Positions 11-28,300 of a DNA stretch of 64,000 bases are shown here, piece after piece. The stretch comes from a virus. Position 1 is the first letter of the stretch. Each line of letters opens with the position of its first letter. The translations under genes and the position numbers were made by a program. Where the stretch lies: IMG/VR virus record IMGVR_UViG_3300017754_002544, positions 1 through 64,000 of that record; one strand, given 5' to 3'. The notes beneath the pieces are model-generated. The model made no database searches. It had not been told where the DNA came from and saw only the letters and a list, made by a program, of their open reading frames with translations.

Positions 11-424
11 ATGCCAAAATACTTTACAAAAGACGGAAAAGAATGGAAAGGAGCTACTCACAAGCATTCTTCTGGAAAAGTTATGACTGGAAAGACTCAT
101 ACTAAAACTAGTAAAGAATTATTCAAAGCTAGTGAATTAAAAAATGCTACAAAGAAAAAATTAAAAGTAGGAGGTACTGAGCATGTAGTTCACAAGAATA
201 AAAAAGGAGAAGTAGTAGTACATCATCCAAAAGTTTCTGCTGGAAAGTATGACAAGATAAACCTTACGAAAATGGCTAAAGTAAAGACTGTTGAAGAAGG
301 AGTAAAGGCAACCAAAGAATGGCACAAAGATAATCCACATATGAAATATAATAGTAAAGATTCTAAATCTTCTAATAAAGTGTGTAAAAAATGTGGAAAA
401 AAACGATGTAATTGCAAGAAATAA
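11..424 (+). CDS. Basic Lys/His-rich protein with Cys-rich C-terminus; putative DNA-associated core protein
   Basis: 137 aa, very Lys-rich; internal LKVGG separates two halves; ends CKKCGKKRCNCKK. Confidence 0.6.
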   Translation: MPKYFTKDGKEWKGATHKHSSGKVMTGKTHTKTSKELFKASELKNATKKKLKVGGTEHVVHKNKKGEVVVHHPKVSAGKYDKINLTKMAKVKTVEEGVKATKEWHKDNPHMKYNSKDSKSSNKVCKKCGKKRCNCKK

Positions 425-480
425 AAATAATTACTAACTATGAAGTTTGAAAACTGTTCAAGCATAAACAATAACTTAAA

Positions 481-1074
481 ATGAGAACAAAAAGCGTAAA
501 GGCAACTCCTAAAAAAGCTGTTTCTAAAAAAGTTGTCAAAAAAACGACTAAACCTAAATCTACCAAAAGAGTTATAAAATACGAAGATGGTGGTAAAAAA
601 TCGATACTGAAATCTAAAGGCATAAAAAGACCACTTCGTACAAAAGAGAGAGTTAATGAATCTAATGATGATTATGGAATATATGAAATAGGGTATAAAA
701 CTTCAAGAACTAATCCAATTACAGGTAGAAAAGTTGAAAAATCTAAAACTACTTCTGGTTTTAAAGCTATTGACGATGAAGACGTTAGACAGATGGGCAT
801 GGATTATTTGCCTAAAAAAGAAACAAGAAAAAAAACTATAATAGGTAAAAAAGGTAACGTAAAAGAAAAAGTAAAAATTTTTGAAATAACAACAGTTAAA
901 TCAAAAAACTCTAAACTTAAGCCAAAATATTACGCTAGCAAAAAAACTAAAACTGTAACTAAAAATGGAGAGGGTTTTAAAAAAACAAATGACTATGTTG
1001 GTAGAGATAAAAAAGTAAAACTATCACAAGATTCATTTAGAAATTATTCAGGTAGAGAAAAAGTTAAGATATAA
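481..1074 (+). CDS. Basic Lys-rich protein with histone H1-like N-terminal leader ending in KYEDGG
   Basis: 197 aa; leader PKKAVSKKVVKKTTKPKSTKRV shared with the next gene. Confidence 0.7.
   Translation: MRTKSVKATPKKAVSKKVVKKTTKPKSTKRVIKYEDGGKKSILKSKGIKRPLRTKERVNESNDDYGIYEIGYKTSRTNPITGRKVEKSKTTSGFKAIDDEDVRQMGMDYLPKKETRKKTIIGKKGNVKEKVKIFEITTVKSKNSKLKPKYYASKKTKTVTKNGEGFKKTNDYVGRDKKVKLSQDSFRNYSGREKVKI
506..574 (+). repeat. 69-bp exact direct repeat, copy 1 (copy 2 at 1129-1197)
   Basis: ctcctaaaaaagctgtttctaaaaaagttgtcaaaaaaacgactaaacctaaatctaccaaaagagtta read at both positions. Confidence 0.95.
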
Positions 1075-1103
1075 AAAATTAAGTTAATTAAACTTAAAAT
1101 TAA

Positions 1104-1838
1104 ATGAAAAAGTTAGTCAAAAAAGTAGCTCCTAAAAAAGCTGTTTCTAAAAAAGTTGTCAAAAAAACGACTAAACCTAAATCTACCAAAAGAGTTAGAA
1201 AATATGCTAATGGTGGAGCAAAGACTGGTTGCCCTGATGGATATGTGAGATCGACAAAAGGGGGCTGTATTTCAAAAAAAGATTTAGAGTATGAAGAATA
1301 CTCACCTGTATCAATGGATGCTGAAAAGGAAGTTAAATATATATTAAGTCAGCGAAATAACTGGGCTAATCAAGATTTAGCTAATAAAGTTAACAGATAT
1401 CCAAAAAATGATGAGGAAGATTTTTTTACTACTACACAAGATAGGTTAGGTATGTATATGGGTATACCATATCCTGGAGCAAGTGCTAAAAGCATGAAAG
1501 ACTTTAGAAAAGCGACTTACGATTTTTACCAAGCTAATCCAAATGTAAAACCATACATAGGAAGACTTCCAATTAAAAAGGAGTTGCCAACTTTATCTAA
1601 AGGAGGGACTAAAACCTCAGTTAAAAAATACGCTAAAGGAGGTACTAAAGCTAAATTAGGATCAGGAGAAAGATTTAAAGCACTTTCTACAAAAATAGAA
1701 AAAGCTTATCAAAAGAAAGGTAAGTCAAAAAGTGTTGCTGAAAAAATTGGAAAAGCAACAGCTGCTATTATTGGAATGAAGAAATATGGCAAAGCTAAGA
1801 TGACTAAAATGGCAGTTAAAGGAAGAAAAGGTAAATAA
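1104..1838 (+). CDS. Basic modular protein (shared leader, CPxG Cys module, basic C-terminal domain)
   Basis: 244 aa; motifs KYANGG, LSKGG, KYAKGG; C-terminal LGSGERF...IGMKKYG segment resembles small basic phage proteins. Confidence 0.7.
   Translation: MKKLVKKVAPKKAVSKKVVKKTTKPKSTKRVRKYANGGAKTGCPDGYVRSTKGGCISKKDLEYEEYSPVSMDAEKEVKYILSQRNNWANQDLANKVNRYPKNDEEDFFTTTQDRLGMYMGIPYPGASAKSMKDFRKATYDFYQANPNVKPYIGRLPIKKELPTLSKGGTKTSVKKYAKGGTKAKLGSGERFKALSTKIEKAYQKKGKSKSVAEKIGKATAAIIGMKKYGKAKMTKMAVKGRKGK
1129..1197 (+). repeat. 69-bp exact direct repeat, copy 2
   Basis: Identical to 506-574. Confidence 0.95.
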
Positions 1839-1863
1839 TATAAATAATCAAATAATCAACACA

Positions 1864-2163
1864 ATGGCAAAAAGAAGAATTAAAAATGTAGATGTAACTG
1901 TAGAGACAGATAAGTCAAAAGTTACTTTTAATAAAGAAGGTGAAAAAGTTAATATCAATATTGACACTCCTAAAGTAGATGTAGAATTCAATAGAGAGGA
2001 TAAAGATTCTAAAGAATTTAACTTAGATACTAAAAACTTAGATATCCATGTAAAGCAAGAAGGTGATGAAATCACAACAGAAGTTCAAGCAAAATCAGGA
2101 TTTTTAACTAAGCTAGGAAACTTAATTGGTAAAATTTTAACTAAAAGATTTAAAAGAAAGTAA
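1864..2163 (+). CDS. Hypothetical protein with short beta-type internal repeats
   Basis: 99 aa; VTVETDK / INIDTPKVDV / FNLDTKNLDI repeats; amphipathic basic C-terminal helix. Confidence 0.65.
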   Translation: MAKRRIKNVDVTVETDKSKVTFNKEGEKVNINIDTPKVDVEFNREDKDSKEFNLDTKNLDIHVKQEGDEITTEVQAKSGFLTKLGNLIGKILTKRFKRK

Positions 2164-2165
2164 TC

Positions 2166-2846
2166 ATGTCAGCTTTAGATACATCAAAGATTAAACAATA
2201 TCCTCTAAAAGAAACACAGTATGTAAAAGAGGATACTACTAAAAGGCAAATTGTTCTTCATCATACAGCCGGAAACTCTTCAGCATTAAATACTATGATT
2301 AATTGGAATAATGATGATAGAGGAAGGATTGCAACTTGTGTAGCTATTTCAGGTAAAAGTGCAAGTAATTCATATGATGGAGAAATAGTACAAGGATTTC
2401 CATCTAAGAGTTGGGCATACCATTTAGGTGTAAAGCAAGAAGTATTTGCAGCATATGGAGTTACATTCCAAAACCTAGATAAACTATCCATAGGAATTGA
2501 AATATGTAATTGGGGGCCTCTTACAAAGAAAGGAACTAAGTTTTACAACTATGTAGATAAAGAAGTTCCAAAAGATCAAGTATGTACACTAGATACTGCT
2601 TATAAAGGATACAAACATTGGCATGCTTATACTGATGCTCAAATTGAAGCTGTAAGACAATTACTTGTGTATTGGAAGGATATACACAATATAAACATAA
2701 CTTACAAAGAGGCTGATATGTGGAATGTTTCTAAACCAGCATTATCAGGCGTACAAGGAGTCTACACACATAATTCTTATAGAAAAGATAAGACTGATGT
2801 TTCTCCTCAACCTAAGTTGATTGCAATGCTTAAAACATTGAAGTAA
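2166..2846 (+). CDS. N-acetylmuramoyl-L-alanine amidase (Amidase_2-type endolysin)
   Basis: IVLHHTAG, AYHLG, SIGIEIC, YTDAQIEA, THN...KTDVSP zinc-amidase motifs. Confidence 0.88.
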   Translation: MSALDTSKIKQYPLKETQYVKEDTTKRQIVLHHTAGNSSALNTMINWNNDDRGRIATCVAISGKSASNSYDGEIVQGFPSKSWAYHLGVKQEVFAAYGVTFQNLDKLSIGIEICNWGPLTKKGTKFYNYVDKEVPKDQVCTLDTAYKGYKHWHAYTDAQIEAVRQLLVYWKDIHNINITYKEADMWNVSKPALSGVQGVYTHNSYRKDKTDVSPQPKLIAMLKTLK

Positions 2847-3004
2847 TGATACTCAGAAATAATTGGAGAAGAAGTCGCAAACAGTGGGACAAGTTTATTC
2901 TAAAGTTAAGAATAAGTTCATTAGATATATTTAGTTTAGAAATTGATATTTCAAGAGAATTCTACATGATATCATTTCTTAATTTTCAAATAAAAAATAG
3001 ATAA
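2846..3004 (+). CDS. Small hypothetical protein (52 aa; not in ORF track)
   Basis: ATG overlaps the amidase stop (TAATG); MILRNNWRRSRKQWDKFILKLRISSLDIFSLEIDISREFYMISFLNFQIKNR. Confidence 0.65.
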   Translation: MILRNNWRRSRKQWDKFILKLRISSLDIFSLEIDISREFYMISFLNFQIKNR

Positions 3005-3037
3005 TAAACAATAAATAAACAATTAAATTAAACAAAA

Positions 3038-3601
3038 ATGAAAAAGATGACCGGAAAAAAAATGCCTAAAACAACTAAAAAATACGCTGCTGGTGGAAAA
3101 GTTTTAGGTCAAGGTAGAGCTACTAGATTAGCTAATAGAGCTAATAAAAAAATGGATAAAGCTGTTTCTACTTGGAAGCAAGCACGAGCTATCCAAAATG
3201 CTGCACCAACATATTCTCCTGATATGAGAGGCAGAAAGTTGGAAATGTATAATCAAGCTGTAGAAGCAGCTAATTCACTTTATGATACTGCAGCAAGCAA
3301 AGAGGCAAGAGCTAAAAAATTAAGAGCAAAATCTGAAAAAGTAGGAGAAAGAGTTATAAGTAGATTAAACAAAAGAATAGATAAAGCAGGAAAAGATCTT
3401 AATAATCCAAAAAAAGCTAGTAAGTCAGTTCAGTCTTTTAAGATGGGAGGTAAAAAATCCTCTTGTAAAAAGTATGAACTTGGTGGAATGGCTTCAATGG
3501 ATTTACTTGGCAAAAAGAAAAAGAAGAAAAGCAGTAAAGGTATGAAAACTGTTTATCCAAACTACAAAAGAAAGATTTGTAAAAATGGAGTTTGTAACTA
3601 A
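3038..3601 (+). CDS. Basic Lys/Ala-rich protein with three GG motifs
   Basis: 187 aa; KKYAAGG, SFKMGG, KKYELGG; poly-Lys run; ends CKNGVCN. Confidence 0.7.
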   Translation: MKKMTGKKMPKTTKKYAAGGKVLGQGRATRLANRANKKMDKAVSTWKQARAIQNAAPTYSPDMRGRKLEMYNQAVEAANSLYDTAASKEARAKKLRAKSEKVGERVISRLNKRIDKAGKDLNNPKKASKSVQSFKMGGKKSSCKKYELGGMASMDLLGKKKKKKSSKGMKTVYPNYKRKICKNGVCN

Positions 3602-3616
3602 TTAAATTATAAATAT

Positions 3617-3642
3617 AAGAGGAGGCTAAAATCTCCTCTTTT
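3617..3642 (+). terminator. Intrinsic terminator candidate
   Basis: aagaggag-gctaaaat-ctcctctt stem-loop followed by a short T run. Confidence 0.6.
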
Positions 3643-3654
3643 AAAATTTTAGCT

Positions 3655-3843
3655 ATGCCAAAGATATTAGATAAAGCTGTAAAAGAGCTAATGGCTAAAG
3701 GTATGGATGAAAGCAAAGCATATGCAATCGCTACAGCATCTCTACAAAAATCCGGTAGCTTAAAAAAAGGAACTAGAAAAGCAACTGCAAAAGGGGTTAA
3801 AAGAGGTAAGATGACTAAAACTCAAAGAAAGAAGTCAAGATAA
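3655..3843 (+). CDS. Small basic hypothetical protein
   Basis: 62 aa; KGMDESKAYAIAT helix plus basic tail; abuts the next ORF. Confidence 0.65.
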   Translation: MPKILDKAVKELMAKGMDESKAYAIATASLQKSGSLKKGTRKATAKGVKRGKMTKTQRKKSR

Positions 3844-4107
3844 ATGGCCGAAAGAAATTATAAAAAAGAGTACAGTAAATTTCAATCTTCAGAAGAACAA
3901 AAAAAGAAGAGAGCTGAAAGAAATAAATTAAGAAGAAAAGCTCTTAAAAAAGGTATTGTTCAAAAAGGAGATAGTTATGACATGAGTCATACTAAAAATG
4001 GTGTTGTTAAAAAGCACAAATCAAAAAATAGAGGATCAAAGAAAGATATGAAAGGTGATATCAAAGCTAGAGGCAATGGTCAAAAAAAGAATCAGCCTAA
4101 AAGATAG
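3844..4107 (+). CDS. Small basic protein, degenerate HNH-like
   Basis: RNYKKEY...RAERN..RR...KGD..D.SH....S.NR pattern resembles small phage HNH-type proteins. Confidence 0.5.
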   Translation: MAERNYKKEYSKFQSSEEQKKKRAERNKLRRKALKKGIVQKGDSYDMSHTKNGVVKKHKSKNRGSKKDMKGDIKARGNGQKKNQPKR

Positions 4108-4126
4108 TAGCAAGATATTTAATCTT

Positions 4127-4158: not shown

Positions 4159-4173
4159 TAAAAATACATAAAA

Positions 4174-5553: not shown

Positions 5554-5558
5554 ATGTT

Positions 5559-10694: not shown

Positions 10695-11575
10695 TGAATA
10701 ATATTGATTCTCTAATAGCGGAAGTAAAATCAGACTTTAGCAAATATGCTGACGCTGGACTTCTTGACGAAGATTCTATGTATAGAGATATTCTATTAGG
10801 CCTTAAGAAATTTGGGAATGATATAATGGAATTACATGAAACTGTTGTCGAAGTAAAAGATGGGTATGCAGAATTACCCGAAAACTTCTATAGTCTTTAT
10901 TTAGCAGCTCTATGTAAGCCACTAGGTTATAAAAATAATTGTGATTCAGAAGATGAGTTCCACGATTTACAAGATTCTTATTTTTATACAGAAAGAGTTA
11001 AGTACGATAGAAAATGGTCAGAGTGTGGTTCATGTTGTGATGAATTGTCAGAGAGTGTAATTAGAGAAAATCTATACTTCAAATCTAAAAGAATGGCTGA
11101 GTTCTATTATCATCAGCCAGAACTCTTAAGTTTAGGAAAAACATTCAATAAGAATAATTGTCATAGCAAGTGTAGAAATAAACTTGTACATGATAATCCA
11201 AATCAAATAGTTATTGTAAAATATAGACTTCAGGCTAATTTTAATGAAGGAGACATCTATATGCAATACTATGGACTTCCAATGGATGAAGATGGTAATA
11301 TTGATATTCCAGAATCAAAAAACGGACATTTGGAAGAATATCTAGAATATAGATTAAAAAGAAAAATAGCGGAAAGGTTAATAGGTAATGTTGAAGGACC
11401 TGGAATGGCTCAAATGTACGCAAACTATGGGCAGCAAGAAAGGATAAACCTAAAGAATGCTTCTAATGAATTAAAGATGAGAAGTATCACACCTACCTCA
11501 ATGCAAAGACTAAAGAGAATTAACAGATTAGAGTCGCTTCAATTTGAAAGCGCATTCACTAGAATGTATTCATAA
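10694..11575 (+). CDS. Putative tail tubular protein
   Basis: 293 aa; VEVKDGYAELPENF and YYGLPMDEDGNIDIP motifs; synteny. Confidence 0.6.
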   Translation: MNNIDSLIAEVKSDFSKYADAGLLDEDSMYRDILLGLKKFGNDIMELHETVVEVKDGYAELPENFYSLYLAALCKPLGYKNNCDSEDEFHDLQDSYFYTERVKYDRKWSECGSCCDELSESVIRENLYFKSKRMAEFYYHQPELLSLGKTFNKNNCHSKCRNKLVHDNPNQIVIVKYRLQANFNEGDIYMQYYGLPMDEDGNIDIPESKNGHLEEYLEYRLKRKIAERLIGNVEGPGMAQMYANYGQQERINLKNASNELKMRSITPTSMQRLKRINRLESLQFESAFTRMYS

Positions 11576-17500: not shown

Positions 17501-17901
17501 TATTTGGATATGGTTTCAATAAAGCGTATATTTACAATAGTAATCAAAATACTGGAAGATTAAATTTAGTACATCAAAAGAATAATGATTTAAGTCAATC
17601 ACTTCAATATCCAATACACAATGTAAATTCTACAGATATTTTACAATCAGAGATAAATGGTAAGTGGACTTTTAATTATCTTTACAATTTAGTTAAAAGC
17701 GAAAGAAGTGGATTACCAATTTGGAGATATGACTGTAGCCAAATTGATAAGACGATTGATGATAGATTACTAGATTATAGAAGCAATTATAAAGATAGAA
17801 TACGAGGTGAGTATTTCTTAATAAGATTGGAGCAAGATGCCGAGAGTAGATATAAGATGATATATAGATTCCAATCAGATATGAGAAACTATTACGAATA
17901 A
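11575..17901 (+). CDS. Tail stabilisation/muzzle-like protein
   Basis: 2108 aa; GMNRD N-terminus, IYFTDGLNPPRYI, GYMRDEVY, FWVDAKRG, WISYYSFKP, IRGEYF motifs typical of crAss-like tail stabilisation proteins. Confidence 0.7.
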   Translation: MPKQRNLSGAKMGMNRDKAPFDLDNSEYSFAMNANFHDEHGSGPVNLQNEPSNIYCTGFRPGFKVIGHKFDINKDRTYFFLVNTTTNCSEIGYINSFYNIDGLEQVESNCNCNLQVVLENPLEETVQVATCSYITILNDCDCNGQSGNQCLNFNINYPIFESNIQLKDEFSGRVIYFTDGLNPPRYIQLDRLDIYLQDEDLCTGEIDPVCLDCEKMRIFKLYDKPCLTVDILQNGGNLKAGLYEAAIAYCTQDGIEISPYYSMTNPIPIFDDNNIILDQTDLDYVTNLSIKLTATDLDIDYEYFKVAIVYRSGLDASTTVVINGIYPITTGSISVYNLTDKTAITLPELVVGKVSYETSRGLASGNGYLFQYGMKAHREINLQPVVNLLGSLVKWSTVAAQEDIYKNGALVSNFTGYMRDEVYPLAIKFFLDGGYETPNFVFIPRPPLDFEIEELGIDYAEDDNNQSVLEHNPDCSGNDRNKRWQFENTAQVIDRCEVPENPAYGEQVNIVTETNICYYDIEVTVAGPETLVIPNGQNLVTYINNNQAEIIASSDPDWATIAGIIDDPTDYPGDCVPSFGDTCTVNPIPISEEIVAVSVGTESSSETALTGFTDYVRVNPPGLASVIDIDGSPALEDTTFITNYMRPWEVVYYRANYGNTSCSTFDPIIQYINPPTTVNNPVWLDYAGSLGTNASLLTPITVSAVDVPNGFTSNLHVNARWYKIDFPSGLDTQIIELSTNAVATTDDICQDKLRVTFYDGCPTTSDVAAYAIIISDITLANDPDKFIVLNSADFPSGSAYIALDTPIKVDVMWSLVFTGTSGSVDIEIDGITYTQAYTGSLPGTASDFLSNHTTPTIIDSISYNILNGSNNIYAVVIGPSVIFRSTEEEFNSLVVTSISWDLGAAALPMQYYHVLTTICGCVNLFSRELDTFIETTFTDLVFYKKQTYEADCEYTIPVLGDCDPVPYEYGLFSYWESVEKYPCNDELYDSSSSICVELSDLQTYLSSAEIDEFLDYYIEGGSAAPVIDAVIGSPCFGKLKWKEDLSGKPFVDFRDREIRHYKFPCSITSPFMSTTSQNPGDFNESVIYPIGFTISEEAIKTFLDLAVTNGLLTLEERLKINKYEIFRGDRSVDKSIISKGLLFDTYQYADGNKETGFLDPAQIVLYPNYPLNALGEDVYNRVLHPYDSTKNHSFTYHSPDIHYYKPFLPRELKIEGYQFGKSQTTFDIVRDHSTYVVLGKLAFNLATILAIIEVSLDIALQAGQLILDAGGSNITVLPANVIIAITLGALLLSSFYRVQEVRYKWIETFYNLGHLHQFAYYSATIGYYNNFLPNPLSNEVLRAMPTIKYLKDGRYSIPNEDISVGGSFLFNNFQREDSVFLNVSEFPINYPSIYYNYDTNNDIDNCSRRFYDGVGKSGLLKGNAASPYVSLKQYLPSQYGNIQSIDWVHTNFCGDLNQSFDCNPIFGGDVSISRFSVKRKIPFFTTNSHGLAPRTPFQYSENFNINPANITSRYYIDYLINDEETFFGITFPTSNKSEFYLYPSGASGAFDFYIRPPEKFFLFSYGFPYFLAESTINSNFRYAKREKFQDFYPNTPDVIEFTQESNVSIRELNYYYYNFVYSALHTPYRRRMLPDNYDSVLYAGTEDQSNTVIYSLQDSSETSLTDPWIVYNGLDAYTFPKTFGKLITMDSIESEQILARFENGFTMFGAVDQIADRFTSDTANLGQGGIFAGRSVNFNKTDLGYAGTQHSAKVSCEFGHFWVDAKRGQVLQVEPGGTSFAEVTAGLEKWFKENLPFKITQYVPNIPQKDLDNNFKGLGITMGWDSRLRRIFLTKLDYKVLVDGVQYIDGEFYLREGEKLSKVDLTDRTIFEDCSFTVAYSPLTKSWISYYSFKPNYYIGYNNYFQTGVNYSVDATEEGLWSHFPFLSSYQVFYGTLHPFTIESIAPTKGYNSVLHSIEYWLDTRKYYNKYDFADIFGYGFNKAYIYNSNQNTGRLNLVHQKNNDLSQSLQYPIHNVNSTDILQSEINGKWTFNYLYNLVKSERSGLPIWRYDCSQIDKTIDDRLLDYRSNYKDRIRGEYFLIRLEQDAESRYKMIYRFQSDMRNYYE

Positions 17902-17907: not shown

Positions 17908-19095
17908 ATGGCTACAGAAACATCTAAATCTAGAGCAAAAGACGCTCAGAATGTAGATCCTAATGAGGTTCTTCAATACCTATTATCTAAAAATGTATCT
18001 ATAAATCATGCTGTAGGTATGGTTACAAATATGTATTATGAATCACTTTTTGACCCATTAGCAATGGGAGATAAAGGAACTTCAGCCGGACTATTTCAAC
18101 ACCATGCAGATAGAAAAGCAAAATTAATGAAAGCAACAAATGGGGATTTATCCAATTGGAAAGCTCAGGTTGATTATGCTTTATCAGAAAGTGCTAGTAA
18201 AAAGTATTTATCAAGAAGTTTTAAAACGCCTGAAGAGGCATCTTATTGGTTTACTTACAATTGGGAGAACCCATCTAATAGAGCTGAGAAAGCAGTTCAA
18301 AGACAATCTTGGATAAAATCTTTTAATGGAGGGCAGTACTTTACAGGAATATACAATCCTAATAATTTAAATGTTGAATTAAAAGCTGTAGCACCTTCAA
18401 AGTCTAGTGGCAAAAAGGCTACATATACAAATCTTGAAGGCACAGCTACAGAAGAAGCAACTATTCCAGAACCTCAACCATATATACCTTCAGCCTATAT
18501 TCCACCAGAAATGATGAGTGGAGTTGATTATGGTCCACAAGAATTCGTAGCTGAAGTTGAGAAAGAGCAAGATAAACAAGTTGAGAAAGAAACTAAAAGT
18601 CAAGAATCTCAAGCAAGAGCCGAGTTAGATGCAAAAACTCAAGAGGCACAACAGAAAGAGAATGAAATGGCATTTTTAAAAACAATACAAAATGCAGTTG
18701 ATGTAAGTGCTTTAAATCAAAATCAAAATACTTCACAAGAAGACCAAAATAGAATGGCCAATATGGCAGCAGGATATCAATTCGAAGAAATGCCAATTCA
18801 GCAATCTTTACCTCAATTACCTACAATATACCAATTTGAAGAAGGAGGAGAAAAGTCAGAGGAAGATGAAGAAGAAGTTGAAGAATCTGAAAATGAAGAT
18901 GAAAACAATGAAGAATCTGAGGACGAAGATAGCAACGAAGAAAATATGGAAGAGGGTGAAGAAAGTGAAGATGATGAGGAAGAAGATAAAGGAGAGGATA
19001 AAGATGAAGATGAAGATGAGGTAGAATATTTAACTCCTGAAGAAATCGAAGAATTAATTAAAAAAGGCTACAAAATCGAGTACGTTAAAGAATGA
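17908..19095 (+). CDS. Virion-associated lysozyme (phage tail lysozyme type) with long acidic tail
   Basis: AVGMVTNMYYES...GDKGTSAGLFQH...AQVDYAL...WENP; ~57-aa D/E tract after FEEGG. Confidence 0.75.
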   Translation: MATETSKSRAKDAQNVDPNEVLQYLLSKNVSINHAVGMVTNMYYESLFDPLAMGDKGTSAGLFQHHADRKAKLMKATNGDLSNWKAQVDYALSESASKKYLSRSFKTPEEASYWFTYNWENPSNRAEKAVQRQSWIKSFNGGQYFTGIYNPNNLNVELKAVAPSKSSGKKATYTNLEGTATEEATIPEPQPYIPSAYIPPEMMSGVDYGPQEFVAEVEKEQDKQVEKETKSQESQARAELDAKTQEAQQKENEMAFLKTIQNAVDVSALNQNQNTSQEDQNRMANMAAGYQFEEMPIQQSLPQLPTIYQFEEGGEKSEEDEEEVEESENEDENNEESEDEDSNEENMEEGEESEDDEEEDKGEDKDEDEDEVEYLTPEEIEELIKKGYKIEYVKE

Positions 19096-22000
19096 AAAAG
19101 TCTAGTAGAAAAACAAAAAGAAAAGGAACAGTAGCCGTAAAAGTTATAGCTCCTAAGAAATTTGCAACTGGTGGAGCTGTCTCTTTTGATTTTGATGATA
19201 CGCTAAGTACAGATTTAGGATTACAAATGGCTAAAAGTAATCCAAGTTCAAATAAGTATGTAATATCAGCTAGATCAGAGGTAACTCCAGATATGATTGC
19301 TAGAGCTCGTCAAGCAGGGATACCTGATAGTAACATATTTGCAACTGGTTCTGATGAAGCTAAAGTAGCTAAGATACAAGAACTTGGTATCAAAAAACAC
19401 TTAGATAATAAAAAGTCAGTAATTGATAGATTAGGTTTTAAAGGTCAATTATTTGAAAATGGTGGAAATAAAAAAGGAAATCCACCGTACAAATCGCCTG
19501 TTCAAATAGTTCCATACTATAGTTTTAATCAACCAACTACTCCAGAAGAATGGGTTAAATCTATAGATCAAATAGAAAAAATAATAGGTAATCCATCTAC
19601 ATGGACACAAGATGACTATAATATATATCAAAATAAGTTAAACGAATATAAGATATGGAGAGAAACAACTCCTGAAGGACAGGCAGTTGTTGATTCTAGT
19701 AAAAGACCAAATGAATACGTAATTCCATTACCAACTCAATTAAGTACTTATTTAACATCCGAACAAAATAGGATACTACAAGAAAATCCAGAGCTTCAAT
19801 TTATACCTAAATCTAAATTTGCATTTGGAATGCCAGGAGCATATGGAGTTACAGATGAAGTAGGTTATGCATATGGTGGGTACTCAGGACTATTTAGATA
19901 CGCTGATGGAGGAACCGAAGGAGAGCCTATAGAAAATCCACCTATATATACATGGGAAGGAGATCCAAATAGCTATTACAGAAAAGACGAAAAAGGAAAT
20001 TGGAGATACTTAAATAAGGATACACAATCAGAATTTGCAAGTGGTCTATATGCTTTTGATAAGGTAAGAAATCGTAAAGTCAAAAAGAAACTTGATGCAG
20101 AAGCTGTATTAAATCCAAATGCGGAAGCAGTATTAAATCAATGGGGTAATACACTTACAACACCAGAGATTTCTGAAGTAACATTAGGTAGAAAAGAGAC
20201 TCGTAAAGAAAGGAAAGAAAGAGAAGCTAGGTATCAAGCTATGACTCCGGAAGAAAGACGCATATTTGACCAAAGAAAAGAGCAAATGAAGGAGGAAATG
20301 TGGAGAAGAGATAATCCTAATCTTTTAGCAAATAACTTCTTTAATGATCCTTCAAATATGACCTCTGAGCAATTGCGTCAAATGGCCTATAAAGTTCCTT
20401 TTGCTGAAGCACAGAAATGGTTGGATATGGCAGAAGTTCAAGCGAGAAGAGAAGGAGAGCTAAGAACAAATAAACGAGAAAAGGATTATTTTCAAATGGG
20501 CATGAGTACAATGCATGGTGGTGATTATCTTGCTCCTGGAGAAACTTATGCTAGTACATATAATAAACTAAACAACTTTAAAACTTCTGAAGAATTACCT
20601 TATGCATATGCTGGAACAGATAAGTCTGGCAATATACAGTTAATGACTCAAGAACAAAAAGCTAAGAATGATGCTCAACTAGCTCAGATTACAGCTGTCA
20701 ATGAAGCATTAAAAAATAGAGCTCTTATTGAACAAATAGAAGGACGAAAGTTAACTGATTCAGACATATATGGAGAAGATGGTAACTACAATCCTAATTT
20801 AGCAAAATATAGTACTCAAGAATATTTAGGAAAAATAGATGACCAAAAATATCAAAACTTTTTAGCAGAAAATCAAAAAGCAGCAGATGAAGCAGGCATA
20901 CTATATAATAGTATGGACTTTTTAAGAAATCTAGCAGTAAACTTTCCAAGTACTACAATCAATCTTCTTGAAGGTAAGATGCCTTTATTTCAACAAGGTT
21001 TAGGTCTTAGATCCGAAGATCCTGAATTACGAGCTATGTATGAAGGATATATGCCAGCAGGAGGAACAGATACTGATTATTGGTTTAATTTTATAAATCC
21101 AGTGGCATCTCTACAAGAGGCTAAAATAAGCTATGATTTAGGAAATTATGGTAATGCTGCATTAGCAGGATTAGGTGCATTACCTCTTATAGGCGCAGTA
21201 GGAAAAGGTACTGCCAAAGGTATTGGAATTTTAGATGATGCCTATAGAGCAGCTATGTCTAAGTCTGATGAATTTGCTAGGTCATTTAATTTAGCAGATG
21301 AAGCACCAGAAAGTAGTTATACATTTACTCAAAGTACTGATGATTTAGCTAATTTAGCAGATGAAGCAACAACAAGTGTTGGGGCTAGAAATAATCCTAC
21401 TAATTTTTATGATGAATACTTATTTAATGAAAATGTAAATTTAGAGAGAATTCCAGAAGAAGATTTGATGACTGCTTTTTCAGAAAATCCAAATGCTACA
21501 ATAGTAGAAGCTATATCTCCTACTTTACCAGGAAATTATACTAATTTAAATGAATTATTAATAGCTCAAGACAAAGCCTTTAGTGAAGGTGTCGACATTT
21601 CTAATAGATGGGCTTTAGCAGATAGTGAAAAATATTTTAGTACTATAGATGAAGCTAGTAAAATGATGGAAGAGATACCTAAAATACAAGATCAAAAAGC
21701 TGCAATAATTAATCAGAGAGAATTAGTTGTTCAAAAGTCAATCGAAGATTTTATGCAAAGTAAGGGATTGCTTGAAAAATACAAAGAGAATCCCTTTAGA
21801 ACAGATATACCCCATTCATTTTTTATTGAGTTCCATGATGACTTGATGAAAAATCCTGATTATGTGAAATTAACTGATGAAATTAATTCATATGACGAAG
21901 CTATAAAACAAATAGAAGTAAGTGCTAATCAAAAAATAGTAGATGCAGAACAATATGTAGATCCAATATTTAAAGAAAAAGTACAAAATCTATATAATCT

Positions 22001-22868
22001 TGCCGGACAAAATGCACCTGAATTAGCAAATATTCAAAAGGATATTCCAATATTTCTACAACTAAATGAATCAGATCCATTATTTTCAACATTATCAAAA
22101 GAAGCTCAAGACTACATTAGAAAAAATAGAGGTGAAATTTATGGTACATCTGGGTTACCAAAAGGCGAAACAGTAACATTAGGATCTATAGCAGGAGATG
22201 AATTAACCTATTTATCAACTCCAAAAGACTCTTCAATAAATACAGAAATAGTGAGATCTGTAGAACAAAAATTTTTACTTCCAGAAGATGTTAGAGCAAC
22301 TGCGGTACATGAAGGGGGTCATGCCATTTCTCAAAAAGCATATAATAATTGGGTTAAATTAGTTGCAGAATATGACCCTATGTATTTATATTATGTAAAT
22401 CATAGTAGAAACGACATTGCAAAAGAGTTTAAAAGATGGATGGTTGACCCAACCCTTCCTGTTGATGGTAAATATACAACTCAAACTTGGAAAAGTGGTA
22501 TTGGAGAGTTACATTCTGAATTAATGGCAGCAAGAGCTGAAGTTGTATCTAATTATGTAAAAAAGAATGGTATGTCTATCGATGAAGCTGTAGAACTAGT
22601 TAAAAAACAAGAAGCAGAAGGCGACCCATTCTTATTTGAATACTACCTAAATGAATCTCCTGCTGAGTTAAGAAAACATTTTAAACCAGATACTCCTGAC
22701 CAAATAAAAAAACAATTGATTCAAATACTTCCAGCTGGTATTGTAATTGCAGGAACAGCATCAGGTATATCTATGGCAGGAAGTGGAGATGGCTCAACAA
22801 CCAATACTCAAGGATATAAATTAGGAGGAAGTCATAAAAATAAATACATTGGTTTATTTAGACAATAA
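19092..22868 (+). CDS. Multidomain putative internal virion protein (HAD module, hydrophobic segment, zincin HExxH domain)
   Basis: 1258 aa; SFDFDDTL HAD motif I; AALAGLGALPLIG hydrophobic helix; HEGGH at 22308-22322; five GG motifs. Confidence 0.65.
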   Translation: MKKSSRKTKRKGTVAVKVIAPKKFATGGAVSFDFDDTLSTDLGLQMAKSNPSSNKYVISARSEVTPDMIARARQAGIPDSNIFATGSDEAKVAKIQELGIKKHLDNKKSVIDRLGFKGQLFENGGNKKGNPPYKSPVQIVPYYSFNQPTTPEEWVKSIDQIEKIIGNPSTWTQDDYNIYQNKLNEYKIWRETTPEGQAVVDSSKRPNEYVIPLPTQLSTYLTSEQNRILQENPELQFIPKSKFAFGMPGAYGVTDEVGYAYGGYSGLFRYADGGTEGEPIENPPIYTWEGDPNSYYRKDEKGNWRYLNKDTQSEFASGLYAFDKVRNRKVKKKLDAEAVLNPNAEAVLNQWGNTLTTPEISEVTLGRKETRKERKEREARYQAMTPEERRIFDQRKEQMKEEMWRRDNPNLLANNFFNDPSNMTSEQLRQMAYKVPFAEAQKWLDMAEVQARREGELRTNKREKDYFQMGMSTMHGGDYLAPGETYASTYNKLNNFKTSEELPYAYAGTDKSGNIQLMTQEQKAKNDAQLAQITAVNEALKNRALIEQIEGRKLTDSDIYGEDGNYNPNLAKYSTQEYLGKIDDQKYQNFLAENQKAADEAGILYNSMDFLRNLAVNFPSTTINLLEGKMPLFQQGLGLRSEDPELRAMYEGYMPAGGTDTDYWFNFINPVASLQEAKISYDLGNYGNAALAGLGALPLIGAVGKGTAKGIGILDDAYRAAMSKSDEFARSFNLADEAPESSYTFTQSTDDLANLADEATTSVGARNNPTNFYDEYLFNENVNLERIPEEDLMTAFSENPNATIVEAISPTLPGNYTNLNELLIAQDKAFSEGVDISNRWALADSEKYFSTIDEASKMMEEIPKIQDQKAAIINQRELVVQKSIEDFMQSKGLLEKYKENPFRTDIPHSFFIEFHDDLMKNPDYVKLTDEINSYDEAIKQIEVSANQKIVDAEQYVDPIFKEKVQNLYNLAGQNAPELANIQKDIPIFLQLNESDPLFSTLSKEAQDYIRKNRGEIYGTSGLPKGETVTLGSIAGDELTYLSTPKDSSINTEIVRSVEQKFLLPEDVRATAVHEGGHAISQKAYNNWVKLVAEYDPMYLYYVNHSRNDIAKEFKRWMVDPTLPVDGKYTTQTWKSGIGELHSELMAARAEVVSNYVKKNGMSIDEAVELVKKQEAEGDPFLFEYYLNESPAELRKHFKPDTPDQIKKQLIQILPAGIVIAGTASGISMAGSGDGSTTNTQGYKLGGSHKNKYIGLFRQ

Positions 22869-22944
22869 GTAATAAGAAAATCAATCTATTTTATAAATAT
22901 ATAATATTTTTATAATTTTATAAATTCAGTAATACACAATCAAT

Positions 22945-25380
22945 ATGGATTTAAATGAATTGAGAAGGATGGCAAATATGATGAGGCTTCAAAACCTTGG
23001 ATATTTCAATCAAAATCCCAATCCTATAGGACCTTACACATCATATGATAATTTATATGGTACTCCTAATGTAATTCAGCCAGGTCAAGAAGCATTTCCA
23101 TTGCCAATGACACCTACTCCTAGTATGCTTATTCCAGGATTATCTCAGACACCTGTTGAACCTAGTGCTGACATACCATTTAATTTTTTTAATAGAGCTG
23201 ATAGGTTACAAAGAAGAGCCGAAAGAAGTATGCCTATGGATCCATCTATGGAAGGATACTCTGATTATGCCGATATACCTTATAATTTTTTTAATAGAGC
23301 TGATAGGTTACAAAGAAGAGCAGATAATCAGATGACTATGAATTTAGGAATGGATGGAATGTATACAAGCCAAGATGCTACTAGTTTACCACAAATGCCT
23401 AAATATACTAGTTTAGACCAACTTAAACAGGACTATCAATCCGGTGCTGATAAAAATATTGAAACATATTATTACAAAGAGTTTGACAGGCTTACAGAAA
23501 TAGACTCTATTGATAAAGATTTTAAATCAGGTAAAATAACTCAAGCTGAAAGAGACAGTAAGGTAAACGAGATAAATCAAAAATATGTAGATACAATGCC
23601 TACAGTTTCTGCACAACAAGCTGAAACACCTACAGTAGGCGAAGAGACACCTGAAGATGCATACAAAAAATATCTAGATTTAATGATGTATTCTAGATTA
23701 GGTACTTCTGGATTATCTATTCCTGAAACAGCATTCTTAACAGGTAAGTATCTTGGACTAGCACCTGGAACTAAAGGTAAGTGGTTAGGAGCTGGATTAG
23801 GTTTCGCAGACTTAGCATTAAAAGGGGCAAGAGAAGTTTTATCAGGAATTGGATACCAGAAAGCTAATGAAGAAGCAAAGAGATGGTATGCCGAGCAAAT
23901 GAATAAAAGAAGGTATGAACCAATAAGTGAAACTAGAACTGGTTATACAGGAGACATTGCAACAGCTGCTGAAGGTGGTACTTTCAATAATCCCGGATTT
24001 AACGCTCTTCCACAGAATATTCAAAATAAGATAATGCAAGGTTATCAAAATAAGAAGTATGCTGAAGGTGGAGGACCAGGTGATAGACTTAAAGAGTTTG
24101 GAGAAAAACTAAAAGAAAATGCTTTCTTCTCTGCGTATCCATATGAATATAATGCTTTTGATACCATGAATAGAAGAAATGATACATTAGCAATAGAGAA
24201 TTGGTATGAAGGTAATCCAAGTCCAAATTACCAAGATGCTTATTATACTCCAAATAATAAATTTGGTATAGGTTATGAAAAATATCTTAAATTTAATCCG
24301 ATACAAGCTATAAGACCATCAATAGGCATAAATGTAGGCCTTCCTTATAGTGGAGGTTTTAAACCAAGTGTAGAAGGATTTTTTAGTGGTAAATATACAG
24401 CAAGAAGAGGAGAAAACTCAGGGATTCCAAAAGTAAAATCAACTCTTAGTGCAGGATATTCGCCTGAAGAAGGTTTAAATGCAAGTATAAATCTTAATCC
24501 TTATTGGGATATATTTAAAAATAGAGTAGGTAGAGATACTATGGGAATACCTTTTCAAAAAGGTTATAATACTAAATTTTTAAGAGGTTATGCAGGTCCA
24601 GCATTTGAATTTGCATCAAGCTTCAAACAAGCGAATGATCCAGCATATTCTGGAGGAAAAAGATTTTTTGCTGGACCATCTTTTAATTATGGAGCTCAAG
24701 CTGGATTTACAACAAAACCTTTTGAGAAATCTAATCTTCAATTAAAAGGGGATTTTGGATTATTTTGGAATCCAGTAGGTGGAAAAGGTAAAGAAGGTGA
24801 TGAAGCCGGAAAATTGCAAGGAGGCTGGAATCCATCAGCAAAAATAGGAATAACATATCCATTAGTAAATACACCTTCATTTCCTAGTAAAATTAAAGAC
24901 GACCAAGACTTTTATAAATCTCTACAAGAGAGTGAAAATAAACAAATGGAAGACTCTAAAAGAGAAGAAGAAAAGAGACAGAGAATGATGAAAAATGTTG
25001 AACCAATGGGAGAATCAAGACATCCTAGATGGTTAGAAAATGGTGGCAAATTCAATAATCCTGGTTTTAATGCTCTTCCAGTAAATGTTCAAAATAGAAT
25101 TATTCAAGGATATCAAGGAAGGAAATATGCTGAGGGAGGAGAGATGCCACCTTTAGTTGAAGATGCTAATTCATATTTAGATTTATTTTCATTTTTAACA
25201 CAAGGTCAAATGCCAACAGATTATTCAGCAATGGCTCCTATGGATATGGGATTACAACAATCTGATTTCGCTACCGATCCAATGTACCAACCAGGAGAAT
25301 ACATAGAATTTGAGTATGGTGGTAAAATGCATAAAGGTATAATTAAGAGTAATAACGGAAAGACAATTTCATTAAAATGA
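22945..25380 (+). CDS. Putative internal virion protein with internal repeats and a beta-rich cassette
   Basis: 811 aa; two repeat pairs; five GG motifs. Confidence 0.6.
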   Translation: MDLNELRRMANMMRLQNLGYFNQNPNPIGPYTSYDNLYGTPNVIQPGQEAFPLPMTPTPSMLIPGLSQTPVEPSADIPFNFFNRADRLQRRAERSMPMDPSMEGYSDYADIPYNFFNRADRLQRRADNQMTMNLGMDGMYTSQDATSLPQMPKYTSLDQLKQDYQSGADKNIETYYYKEFDRLTEIDSIDKDFKSGKITQAERDSKVNEINQKYVDTMPTVSAQQAETPTVGEETPEDAYKKYLDLMMYSRLGTSGLSIPETAFLTGKYLGLAPGTKGKWLGAGLGFADLALKGAREVLSGIGYQKANEEAKRWYAEQMNKRRYEPISETRTGYTGDIATAAEGGTFNNPGFNALPQNIQNKIMQGYQNKKYAEGGGPGDRLKEFGEKLKENAFFSAYPYEYNAFDTMNRRNDTLAIENWYEGNPSPNYQDAYYTPNNKFGIGYEKYLKFNPIQAIRPSIGINVGLPYSGGFKPSVEGFFSGKYTARRGENSGIPKVKSTLSAGYSPEEGLNASINLNPYWDIFKNRVGRDTMGIPFQKGYNTKFLRGYAGPAFEFASSFKQANDPAYSGGKRFFAGPSFNYGAQAGFTTKPFEKSNLQLKGDFGLFWNPVGGKGKEGDEAGKLQGGWNPSAKIGITYPLVNTPSFPSKIKDDQDFYKSLQESENKQMEDSKREEEKRQRMMKNVEPMGESRHPRWLENGGKFNNPGFNALPVNVQNRIIQGYQGRKYAEGGEMPPLVEDANSYLDLFSFLTQGQMPTDYSAMAPMDMGLQQSDFATDPMYQPGEYIEFEYGGKMHKGIIKSNNGKTISLK
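23167..23323 (+). repeat. Internal direct repeat pair (23167-23222 and 23269-23323)
   Basis: ADIP(F/Y)NFFNRADRLQRRA twice, with a near-identical nucleotide core. Confidence 0.9.
23968..24072 (+). repeat. GG-linker repeat, copy 1 (copy 2 at 25036-25140)
   Basis: AEGGTFNNPGFNALPQNIQNKIMQGYQNKKYAEGG. Confidence 0.9.
25036..25140 (+). repeat. GG-linker repeat, copy 2
   Basis: ENGGKFNNPGFNALPVNVQNRIIQGYQGRKYAEGG. Confidence 0.9.
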
Positions 25381-28300
25381 AAAAGTTCGATACTAAAAAA
25401 ATAAAGATTAAATCCAAGAAAGAACCCTCAATGGAGGAGAAGCTTACTGGATCTGTAATATCAGAATTAAAAACTGATAAAGTTGAACCTAACGCAGAGT
25501 TAGAGGGAGATGAAATTGTACAATTCCCTGATGGATTAATCCAAACTGTTAAAGGTGAACCTCACTCTAAGGGTGGGGTAAAAATGAATATACCTGATGG
25601 CACGAGGATTATATCAAATAAGCTTACGTTATCAAAAAAAGATGTAACTAGATTAAAAGATAAGTATGATTTAAATACATCAACTAATGATACTTATGCT
25701 AAAGCATTTGATAAGTTCCTAAAGAAAAGTGGAATAACAAGACTTAACGAAGAACAGAAGGGGTATTTTGAAACATTAAAGAAGCAATTAGAAAGTGAAA
25801 GTATTCCATCTGCCACTTTTAGATTGAACCAAGAACATTTATCTAAAAAGATAAGTGAGATAGAAATGCAGAAACAAATCAAAGAAGATGTAAAGAAAGA
25901 AGTTTTCAATGACATATTTCAAATGCAAGAAGTATCTAAGTCACCTGATAAAAAAGCAAAATCAGAATCAGGAGAGTACAAATATGGAGGGACATATAGA
26001 AAGTTTGCAATGGGTGGATTTCAACCAATGAATGGTATGCCGTATGGAAATTATTCAGGCTTGTATTCTAAAGGAGTATCGCCAAATATTCCAATGATGC
26101 CTTCAACTCCCCCACCTCCACCACCACCTCCACCAATGTCTCAGAAAGGAAAAGATATGTTTAAAGCTGAGAAGGGAGGTACTAAAAATGAATTTAGCAT
26201 TTCTGAAATAAAAGTAGTACCTAAGCCTAGAACTCGCTATGCTGATGGAGGCCCAAAAAATCCATGTCCTGAAGGAATGACCTATGATCCAGTTTATGGA
26301 TGTGCTCCAGTTGATACTATTATATATCCCCCAGGAGATTCTGAGTATATGAATCAACCTCGTCTTAATTATGACATTATTGAAATGCTTAATCAAAAAT
26401 ATAGAAGAGATGCCGAAGAATATATAAGGGATATGAATGACCCCACTAATATTCAAAGAGCTACACCTGCAGAACAACAGAAATTTTATATGAATCAAGG
26501 ATTAGTTTCTGCACAAAATGGTGGTACTATTAATATGTCAGGAGCTACTTATGCTAAAGGTGGAGAAAAGAAATCAGGTTATGGAAACTTAACTCAAAGT
26601 CAATTCCAATCTTTATGTAAGAAGTATGGAATGACAGAAGAACAAGGTAAAGTTCTTTTGCTAAGTAAAACTAAACAGTATGCTATAGGTGGTGTAGCCG
26701 ATAGTGGGGATCCATATGTAGTAGTAAATCCTGATGGGACTCACGTATTAAGAACTTCAGAAGGAGATATGCCACTTGGTAAAGGAGATTATAAGATAAA
26801 TCCTGATGGAACAGTAGACGTATTTAAGCAGGTAGGTGCATCTAGGATGATAACTACGCCTTATTATTACCAAAACCCACAATCTGATACTGAAGACTTA
26901 TTAACTCCAGAAGACTATGTTAAAGGTGACTATGCGTCTGCAGCTGCTTTAGGTAAAGCTAGTCCTACAAATATAAATTTAGTTCAAAAAGAAGATGGAA
27001 GTTTTGAAGCAATTAAACCAGAGACTTCTGAAACTAGAACTATACCGAATAAAGATGTAGTTGTAAATAATGATGGAACAGCAACTGTTAAAGTTGATGG
27101 AAACAATGTTACAACTGAATACCAAGTAGTTAATAAAGAAACAGGAGAACTAGAATCTCCAGTAGTTCAAGTAGCTGAGTCTATTGATAAGACTCCAAAA
27201 GGAATGACTAAGCAAGAGTACTTAGCTTTAAAGAAAGAGTTAGATTCACCAATAAAAATTGCTAAGGCATATTCAGAAGGTAAAATAGATGCTCAAACTG
27301 CAAATAAACTACAATTTATATTAGACAATAGCACAGGTGCTCTTTTTACAACTAGTACAGCTGGTAAAAGTGTCTACTCTAAATCCGAATTATATCCTGC
27401 CACATACCAAAAAGTAAATGAAGCAGCTCATGGAAATATAACAAAAGAAGATTTACCATTAGTTATGGAGTATCTGTATAAAAATTTTCCAGACATTGTT
27501 TCTTCAGAAGATATATTTGGAGGTAAATTTGATGAAAGTGGTAAGTTTACTTATAATGAGAGTCTAGATTTTACAAAAGCTTCTGAACAAGTTGGAAAAT
27601 TTCAAGAAAGAGCTAATGATAGAATGAAGGCGACAGCTAGAGTTATATTAGATAATGCACACTTATTTGATACAAAAGATGTAGAAGAAGCAAGAAGATT
27701 TCTATCAGATGAAACATTTAACGAAGGATTGCCAGCTAGAAAGTTTGATAAATTGCTAGGCAACTTTACCTCTGGTAGATATAATTTAGGAGTTAATGTT
27801 GTATCAAAAGACGAACTACAAAAACTAAATGCTTTAAATATATACACTATAAAAGATTTAAATAAAGCAATAGAAGAAAATCCAGAACTTATTAGTGATG
27901 CTAGTAAAGCTAGATTGTACGAGTTATCAGATATTATGTCAGATGATTCAGACTTTCTATTAAATCCAACAGTAGAACCTGAAGTACCAGAAGAGGAACA
28001 AGTAGTGGAACAGAAGCCTATATCTGAGGATGTGACATTACCAAAACCATTTATACCTACTAGATATTTTACACCTGATGTAGCACCACTTCCTCCAACC
28101 GCAATGATGCCACACTTTATGGGTCAGAGTCAATTTGGATTAGCTGAACCAGTTAGAATTGGGATTGAGCAACAAGTACAAGCTACTAATGATATAATGA
28201 GAGATGTGAGTAGACAAGTTCAAGACTTACCACCACAACAAAGAGCTCTTGTTATGTCACAAATGCAGGCAGAAAGAGGCAAACAATTAAATGATGCTGC

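Follow-up and report, generated by a model that had tools for sequence, protein, structure and literature searches.

In phage T4, internal proteins carry a capsid-targeting sequence that is removed by the gp21 prohead protease, which cuts after Glu (L/I-x-E). The adenovirus protease cuts the core proteins pVII, pX and pVI at (M/I/L)-X-G-G|X, and double-glycine leaders carry spaced hydrophobic residues with the site at the end of the N-terminal leader. Among tape-measure proteins, T5 pb2 was found by mass spectrometry to be cut after R1127 (PMC10038345, in excerpt), and the available part of the 2025 Ur-lambda paper (PMC12617516) describes both the exact cleavage site of lambda gpH and its catalyst as unknown. 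Polyvalent proteins, according to the excerpted text of Iyer et al. 2017 (PMC5512222), are large and injected, and consist of shuffled enzymatic modules with embedded zincin-like peptidases that are proposed to process them. In crAss001, two fragments of the cargo protein gp45 were resolved, residues 214-245 and 425-552, the latter bound to the portal (Bayfield et al. 2023, PMC10172136); the excerpted text of that paper proposes that the cargo unfolds partly during ejection and holds no occurrence of 'proteol', 'cleav' or 'protease'. For the short-tailed phages that infect Bacteroidota, it is not known by what means megadaltons of ejected protein are loaded, stored and released. The present analysis concerns a short recurrent motif, [YF]xxGG in its strict form, in a window comprising the first 64 kb (64,000 nucleotides) of the 124,113-bp IMG/VR virus record IMGVR_UViG_3300017754_002544. 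We read the motif as a joint under selection, of a type that a reader recognises, in proteins that are probably stored inside the particle and ejected. No description of it in phage cargo or tape-measure proteins was found among the titles and abstracts listed by full-text literature searches.

An original prediction, made from the sequence of the window alone, listed 26 copies of [YFLA]xxGG, and 26 of 26 give the reported pentapeptides in frame. The same loose expression finds two extra sites, at 24061 and 24643, both in the open reading frame (ORF) at 22945-25380. Enrichment was measured in eight ORFs (4320 residues) against 2000 rounds of per-protein shuffling, and the recurrence that had been noticed by eye was upheld: [YFLA]xxGG was observed 28 times against 5.18 +/- 2.25 expected, a count reached in 0 of 2000 shuffles. 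[YF]xxGG was observed 20 times against 2.09 expected, and the core [YF][AEK]xGG also 20 times against 0.52 expected, in both cases with no shuffle reaching the observed number. Enrichment of [LA]xxGG was weak (8 against 3.00 expected; 25 of 2000 shuffles), and the six listed Leu/Ala sites are therefore treated as weak members. ORFs were counted over the whole genome (148 in all), and in the remaining 140 (33798 residues) [YF]xxGG stands at expectation, 13 against 11.7. Tyr or Phe occupies position -3 of GG at 20 of 37 GG sites in the eight ORFs as compared to 11 of 127 elsewhere (Fisher p=1.4e-8). A blind per-ORF test was passed after Bonferroni correction by three of the 148 ORFs (3038-3601, 25377-28652 and 19092-22868), the first of which is significant alone with 3 motifs against 0.048 expected (Bonferroni p=2.6e-3). 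The genome holds 33 copies of [YF]xxGG, and 23 of these fall in 5581 of 38118 residues (15%), within the blocks 11-3601 and 17908-31607. The suspected rarity of the motif in replication genes was borne out, with 0 copies of [YF]xxGG across 2701 residues.

The fuller consensus reads K/R at -5 and -4, Y/F at -3 and A/E/K at -2, followed by G-G, T/K and K. The residue at -2 is A, E or K at 24 of 37 GG sites. A preceding K or R, described earlier as frequent, is present at -4 in 15 of 37 GG sites. Codons vary among most copies, which supports conservation at the protein level as had been proposed. The exception is the pair of leaders in ORF 481 and ORF 1104 (ORFs are named here by their first coordinate), which share 69 identical nucleotides and diverge afterwards; the sites at 580 and 1203 are therefore not independent. 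Five tandem pairs, with their motifs 9-13 residues apart, occur in the window.

The virus record is complete, with direct terminal repeats and ~32% G+C, and comes from a short-tailed lake phage. PHROG and Pfam scans place terminase, portal and head proteins at 106-120 kb and a holin plus a C92 papain-like enzyme at 121-122 kb. Tail genes lie at 4-18 kb, among them ORF 11575-17901 for a 2108-residue virion protein; a block of large ORFs spans 17908-49971, and replication genes begin at 50 kb. Among annotated phages, Cellulophaga phages phi4:1 and phi17:2 come nearest (40% identity across the 2108-residue protein), with further matches to Flavobacterium phages and one human-gut phage. No match was found by megablast of 20 kb against the phage collection, and scanning of viral contigs with the single protein ORF 22945 found no close relative. 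In BLASTP comparisons with crAss001, ORF 11575 resembles the muzzle protein gp44, weakly (E=1.4e-5), ORF 31607 resembles gp47 and ORF 44197 resembles gp49, and the gene order agrees with crAss001 gp44-gp50. ORFs 17908-31607 thus fill the slot of the cargo proteins gp45 and gp46, and the motif carriers in this block, encoded after the muzzle gene, are probably cargo proteins. The phi4:1 counterparts of the cargo block, gp039-gp042, are annotated as virion proteins from tandem mass spectrometry (MS/MS), with gp040 and gp041 annotated as detected in virions. Holmfeldt et al. 2013 is said to be the source of these annotations.

The motif lies at joints between protein modules. Conserved basic leaders at the N-terminus come before it, and short conserved tails at the C-terminus come after it. 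When 24 cargo proteins were compared all-versus-all by BLASTP, the alignments had 133 internal ends, of which 33 fell within 6 residues of a motif end, as compared to 5.1% of random positions (binomial p=2e-14, with ends that are not fully independent). This test was used in place of one based on MAFFT, which fragments insertions; there, long insertions were bounded by GG at 2 of 20 edges (A1) and 6 of 30 edges (A2) over a background of ~9%. Rearranged relatives mark the same joints. Modules run in the order A-B in ORF 19092 and B-A in its relative P0024 behind an identical leader, with a motif at each joint; P0026 has a different zincin module placed between the leader and module A, with motifs at both limits; and P0021, P0023, P0024 and P0026 combine an identical leader with different module orders. 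In phi4:1, gp041 joins the lysozyme to two zincin modules with the motif at the joint, and gp040, compared by eye, joins a module like that of ORF 22945 to a protein like ORF 25377 (C1-like) with a tandem motif between them; the parts of both are encoded by separate genes in the window. From these alignments, cassettes appear to have been swapped in evolution at the motif joints.

Structure models locate some of these joints at the edge of folded domains. The AlphaFold2 model of ORF 25377 has a mean predicted local distance difference test score (pLDDT) of 59, and the first motif closes its confident N-domain (residues 20-205, blocks at pLDDT 76-90); there, residues 201-203 are helical and the block 201-210 has a mean pLDDT of 76. 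The other listed motifs of this protein lie in or beside stretches with pLDDT <50. The zincin model of ORF 19092 is ordered up to about fragment residue 216, and its C-terminal motif and tail are disordered. It is conceivable that no reader is involved and that the motif is punctuation, in which the run K-K-aromatic-A/E/K would favour a helix and Gly-Gly would stop it and form a flexible hinge. Such hinges would let strings of modules unfold and thread a narrow tail channel, and the shared sequence would offer micro-homology for shuffling. The residues favoured at -2, the first motif of ORF 25377 closing a confident helical domain, the homology blocks that end at motifs, and the partial unfolding of crAss001 cargo at ejection proposed in the excerpts of PMC10172136 all agree with it. 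However, many copies are conserved in long stretches of low confidence with no folded neighbour, and such copies fit a motif read by a partner better than a domain cap. Near-invariant glycines and an aromatic residue across 30%-identical proteins also exceed what a generic hinge needs, and codon differences between copies limit any DNA micro-homology. This explanation is therefore considered unlikely.

The motif is kept in homologues of 30-90% identity, inside linkers that are otherwise variable and disordered, so the conservation check suggested alongside the original prediction came out in favour of the motif. For ORF 25377, with 19 homologues at 30-92% identity, all 20 proteins have 2-6 copies of [YFML]xxGG as compared to 0.5-1.0 expected; G204 and G205 are invariant in 20 of 20, and the linkers between motifs are rich in insertions and deletions. 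F121, G124, G125, G273, G274 and G1245 are invariant in the seven members of the ORF 19092 family. In L004, an IMG/VR relative at 35% identity, the post-lysozyme gene has 4 motifs and the C1-like gene 2, and the cargo block includes two Lys-rich proteins (K+R 24%) with 1 and 5 motifs. In phi4:1 gp040, 6 motifs were counted where 1.2 would be expected. A search with the zincin domain of ORF 19092 yielded 131 cluster representatives, of which 130 were analysed; these hold 331 copies of [YFM]xxGG against 88 expected, and 77 of the 130 reach at least three times their own expectation. At least 80% of 128 aligned sequences of this family retain a C-terminal k-x-GG followed by a tail of 10-20 residues, and the tails fall into a few recurrent types. 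The motif, its enrichment, its conservation, its position at junctions and the virion location of homologues are thus settled observations.

Conservation in disordered linkers is the style of short linear motifs, and the motif could accordingly be a docking handle that is never cut, in which the aromatic residue and a tight Gly-Gly turn bind a repeated site of the particle. The portal, the lumen of the tail barrel, a scaffold or the capsid floor would be such sites, and tandem copies would add avidity. Five tandem pairs, the conserved leaders and tails beside the motif, which could themselves be binding peptides, and the fact that family searches found no protease are in keeping with docking. 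In crAss001 gp45, aromatic-x-GG sites flank both resolved fragments: residues 214-245 lie between GG210 and FAEGG260-264, and the model of the portal-bound domain begins at residue 425, which is the Ala of A-F-G-G. As gp45 contains 21 GG dipeptides, this evidence is compatible only. A single chain, however, needs no tag at every internal joint, no partner was found, and the segments that carry motifs span net charges from +27 to -44, which points to no shared electrostatic partner. Cutting, in addition, is part of both the T5 and the lambda precedent. Docking without cleavage is judged somewhat unlikely.

The explanation that we favour, tentatively and at rather less than even confidence, is that the joint is a proteolytic processing site with adjacent address peptides. 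Under this processing explanation, [K/R]-[K/R]-[Y/F]-[A/E/K]-x-G-G would be a conserved joint in proteins that are loaded into the particle and ejected, carried by small Lys-rich proteins and by the large modular cargo proteins encoded downstream of the muzzle gene. Each cassette, whether a basic leader, an enzyme or binding module, or a short C-terminal tail, would end in one copy, often a tandem pair. Leaders and tails would act as address labels that load the proteins, and cutting would then free the modules. Cleavage may occur after GG or, equally, between the bulky residue and A-x-G-G in the manner of T5 pb2, and the protease may be one of the zincin domains within the cargo proteins or come from the host. 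Both loading and cutting, like the enzyme itself, are what we infer from the pattern. Of the polyprotein claim in the original prediction, a protein-level signal at the module boundaries of probable virion-internal proteins stands; the cut after GG is a proposal.

Several observations weigh against proteolytic processing. A cut has been demonstrated for no protein of this phage or its relatives, and A, E or K at -2 followed by GG would also suit a plain helix stop. Enrichment is weak in two cultured crassviruses: crAss001 gp45 has 3 motifs against 2.0 expected, and phi14:2 g069 and g070 together have 3 against 0.74. The portal-bound domain of gp45 starts at Ala425, so the GG there is probably not cut after; this start fits either a T5-type cut or an uncut, structured start. 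The T5 pb2 cut itself directly precedes A-E-G-G, whereas a GG|X cut would fall four residues further downstream. According to the excerpts of PMC5512222, packaging of the N4 virion RNA polymerase takes place without processing. No peptidase family known to cut at Gly-Gly was found encoded. The prohead proteases S77 and S78 (PF03420, PF04586) gave 0 matches, and PHROG and Pfam scans of 10 head-module proteins recovered no protease. The C92 papain-like protein (genome 121603-122094) was rejected as a reader: it adjoins the holin and is absent from phi4:1 and from the related record G001, and it is read as a lysis enzyme for these reasons. The zincin family of ORF 19092 cannot serve as a universal reader, as single-sequence searches of phi4:1, of crAss001 and of the G001 record did not detect it.

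Zincin domains in the cargo proteins, or a host enzyme, may nevertheless be the reader for the proposed processing. The putative one in ORF 19092 is a zincin-like metallopeptidase domain at 22239..22736 (+ strand) with HEGGH at residue 1073. It has the catalytic-core pattern of zincins, HExxH and a downstream Glu, and 26 of 26 aligned sequences keep H74, E75, H78, E140 and H142 unchanged, so that E-x-H is invariant too. Its AlphaFold2 model has a mean pLDDT of 80.9. Foldseek gave no match to this model at E<=0.001, and the best VIA-align result was weak (Z 4.1); weak matches to zincins at Z 3.1-3.8 include PPEP-2 (Z 3.8, root-mean-square deviation 4.1, 115 residues aligned) and lethal factor (Z 3.4, deviation 4.4, 112 aligned). 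A complex prediction of this domain with the ORF 1104 leader, run without controls, gave no verdict (score 0.00, mark 0.32). The family was not found in the loci of phi4:1, crAss001 and L004 by hidden Markov model (HMM), nor in their whole records by single-sequence search. A second zincin-like region, with HEYGH at 40233..40247 (+ strand), lies inside the 2357-residue ORF 36660-43733 of the RNA-polymerase-associated block, and other zincin motifs occur in phi4:1 gp041, phi14:2 g065 and g070, and crAss001 gp47. The phi14:2 preprint describes gp65 and its orthologues as having a zincin-like protease domain. Both this preprint and Iyer et al. 2017 suggest that domains of this kind might process cargo or digest the cell wall, and neither names a site.

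Other enzymes were considered as readers. The original prediction placed the motif beside the GG sites of adenovirus and of double-glycine leaders, in which case a phage-encoded cysteine peptidase of clan CE or C39 would cut after GG, as in adenovirus or in bacteriocin maturation. The GG with an upstream hydrophobic residue and the basic, core-like proteins with N-terminal leaders would suit such an enzyme. Neither clan CE peptidases (PF00770, C5; PF02902, C48) nor C39 peptidases (PF03412) were matched at E<=1 in the complete 124,113-bp genome, with room left in the case of clan CE for a very diverged fold. The hydrophobic residue stands at P5 instead of P4, the Lys-rich leaders lack the hydrophobic pattern of double-glycine leaders, and motifs are internal as well as N-terminal. 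An adenovirus-like or C39-like mechanism is disfavoured on these grounds and regarded as very improbable. The DNA-condensing peptides proposed as products are an inference from basic composition. The motif is classed here with maturation or targeting signals of virion-internal proteins. Lambda gpK carries a JAB/JAMM domain; a reader of this kind was rejected here because no H-x-H-x(6-9)-[ST]-x-x-D occurs in the 148 ORFs and PF14464 gave no match at E<=1.

Four proteins encoded at the start of the window, all on the + strand, are small and basic. ORF 11..424 encodes 137 residues (K+R 28%) with no family match and with one weak variant of the motif, LKVGG at 161. ORF 481..1074 encodes 197 residues (K+R 30%) and begins with a 38-residue Lys-rich leader that runs up to YEDGG at 580. 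ORF 1104..1838 encodes 244 residues with YANGG at 1203, LSKGG at 1593 and YAKGG at 1629; its conserved leader and YANGG are followed by a variable middle, then LSKGG and YAKGG, and finally a conserved 64-residue basic C-terminal module. In its family of 13 sequences, K178-G179-G180 is invariant in all 13, and the leader and the C-terminal module have different partners in different homologues. ORF 3038..3601 encodes 187 residues, with a 20-residue leader up to YAAGG at 3083 and the tandem pair FKMGG 3437/YELGG 3473. In all, four proteins of the window begin with Lys-rich leaders of 20-38 residues closed by the motif.

Two modules of these basic proteins deserve separate mention. The C-terminal module of ORF 1104 (window 1644-1838) is identical in 7 of 13 family members, in which it is joined to different N-terminal parts; a weak Atlas look-alike to DUF6496 (score 0.77) is a lead only. 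A mini-module of the form Cys-Pro-[Asp/Glu]-Gly-[Tyr/Met]...Gly-Cys stands directly after the motif at 1212-1270 in ORF 1104 and at 26250-26310 in ORF 25377, two unrelated proteins. In the ORF 1104 family some homologues have it and others cleanly lack it; a small cassette that forms a disulfide or metal knuckle is possible.

The large cargo proteins are likewise encoded on the + strand. The first, at 17908..19095, is a tail-lysozyme protein (PF18013, E=1.6e-15) made of the lysozyme domain, a linker, FEEGG at 18835 and an 81-residue C-terminal tail. The tail (window 18850-19092) has a net charge of -40, and its end is formed by a short unit of beta-alpha-beta appearance (L-T-P-E-E-I ... G-Y-x-I-E), which also closes several unrelated zincin-family proteins after GG and may be a shared C-terminal address or oligomerisation unit. 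ORF 19092..22868 encodes a modular protein of 1258 residues with motifs at 19161, 19452, 19866/19899 and 22815. It begins with a 28-residue basic leader, FATGG 19161, module A, FENGG 19452 and module B; then follow YAYGG 19866/YADGG 19899, a long body, the zincin domain, a hydrophobic stretch, YKLGG 22815 and a 12-residue tail. Module A (window 19170-19466) has a DxDxT-like start and limits that coincide exactly with two motifs, and Pfam gave no match to its region at E<=1. Two relatives of ORF 19092, P0025 and P0027, bear a SET methyltransferase domain at the N-terminus (PF00856; E=4.5e-7 and 2.3e-3) and also a small additional zincin module with a weak Peptidase_M91 match (6e-4).

ORF 22945..25380 (811 residues) has a 31-residue unit that occurs twice, with GG on both sides (23965-24072 and 25033-25140), flanking an insert of ~320 residues. 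Its FEYGG at 25309 lies in a small C-terminal module of beta type that is also present in L004, and looks like a turn within that module; the N-terminal module is homologous to L004 ORF 8916-9995. ORF 25377..28652 (1091 residues), the homologue of phi4:1 gp040, has seven listed motifs between 25977 and 26679, placed where the folded N-domain ends and within disordered linkers. In the PDB, no match to this protein was found by profile or sequence search, and none to its model by Foldseek at E<=0.001. Beyond the range of the original prediction lies a further protein of the block, ORF 28719..31607 (962 residues), with three [YF]xxGG motifs and homology to phi4:1 gp039 and L004 ORF 15444-18431. 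Only the lysozyme (PF18013) and the zincin are recognisable in the cargo proteins, and most modules are without a family.

A short element, Pro-x-Ala/Gly-x-[LIV]-x-x-Gly-Glu-x-[VILFY], was seen by eye after the motif in four proteins, at window 25490-25620, phi4:1 gp040 residues 355-400, crAss001 gp45 residues 440-480 and lambda gpH residues 745-765; homology among its carriers was unsupported by HMM and hhalign. Elsewhere in the genome, a lysis pair at 121116-122094 consists of a holin (PF05105) and a permuted papain-like C92 amidase (PF05708, 40 bits). It is separate from the amidase gene at 2166-2846 (Amidase_2 in the PHROG and Pfam scans) and from the tail lysozyme at 17908, so the phage has three wall-degrading enzymes. 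A homing endonuclease of GIY-YIG/HNH type (genome 122746-123564; phrog_314, E=1e-31) lies between the lysis genes and the genes for the Lys-rich proteins.

With a joint of five residues that a regular expression can find, the limits of modules could be read from sequence in proteins that evolve fast and defy annotation, and places of processing or docking would be indicated as well. Cellulophaga phage phi4:1, in which gp040 and gp041 carry the motif, is a cultured system that makes a decisive experiment feasible. A broader proposal, which we hold to be improbable, is that one reader, perhaps a protease of the host or embedded in cargo, recognises [bulky]-[A/K/E/Q]-x-G-G in all proteins stored in the capsid or tail lumen, among them podophage cargo, Lys-rich internal proteins and siphophage tape measures. 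If so, the motif would supply the determinant still wanting for cleavage of lambda gpH and T5 pb2, and the cargo of crAss-like and related phages would be delivered as cut sets of modules, each loaded through leader or tail address peptides. A true link to T5 pb2 and lambda gpH would also make an old question testable by point mutation.

Like the T4 internal proteins, unrelated proteins here have short N-terminal leaders followed by a short conserved site; unlike them, no Peptidase_S77 is present and the motifs are internal and C-terminal as well. The adenovirus core proteins offer GG with an upstream hydrophobic residue, basic DNA-associated proteins, and N- and C-terminal peptides, but the bulky residue here is at P5 (Y/F in 20 of 37 GG sites) and not at P4. 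Unlike C39 leaders, the leaders here are Lys-rich, and most motifs are internal or near the C-terminus. Reminiscent of polyvalent proteins are the lysozyme and putative zincin domains of the locus, and the SET domains in the homologues P0025 and P0027. Unlike polyvalent proteins, the cargo proteins of the window belong to a conserved crAss-like cargo block, and the excerpted text of PMC5512222 describes no junction motif and holds neither 'glycine' nor 'linker'. The cargo proteins C1 (gp45) and C2 (gp46) of crAss001 occupy the same slot, between the muzzle and RNA-polymerase-associated genes. A link of the ORF 25377 N-domain to crAss001 C1, suggested by a language-model Atlas look-alike (0.93), was rejected as unconfirmed by HMM and hhalign: PF25725 (crAss_CARG1) matched crAss001 at 2.6e-69 and left ORF 25377 unmatched, with an hhalign probability of 0.2%. 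A marine-phage proteomics paper held nothing relevant.

The tape measures, T5 pb2 (cut to pb2* and pb2C) and lambda gpH (cut to gpH* and gpHC), are likewise resident in the lumen and ejected and, as in the cargo proteins, [bulky]-A-x-G-G comes after a stretch that is hydrophobic or rich in Gly. In the T5 record, pb2 residues 1128-1131 read A-E-G-G, and only five GG dipeptides occur in 1219 residues. Lambda gpH has FATGG at 733 and YATGG at 778 ([YF]A.GG 0.053 expected; 5 of 5000 shuffles), both within the C-terminal 121 residues and inside the ~14-kDa glycine-rich C-terminal piece that is removed. TIGR01541 (NCBIfam) matches gpH at 1e-134 but none of nine window proteins at E<=1, so there is no link at the family level, and the lysozyme domain of ORF 17908 is the only part that matches PHROGs named tape measure. 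The T5 and lambda tape measures have one or two sites per protein, whereas up to seven occur here, in several proteins.

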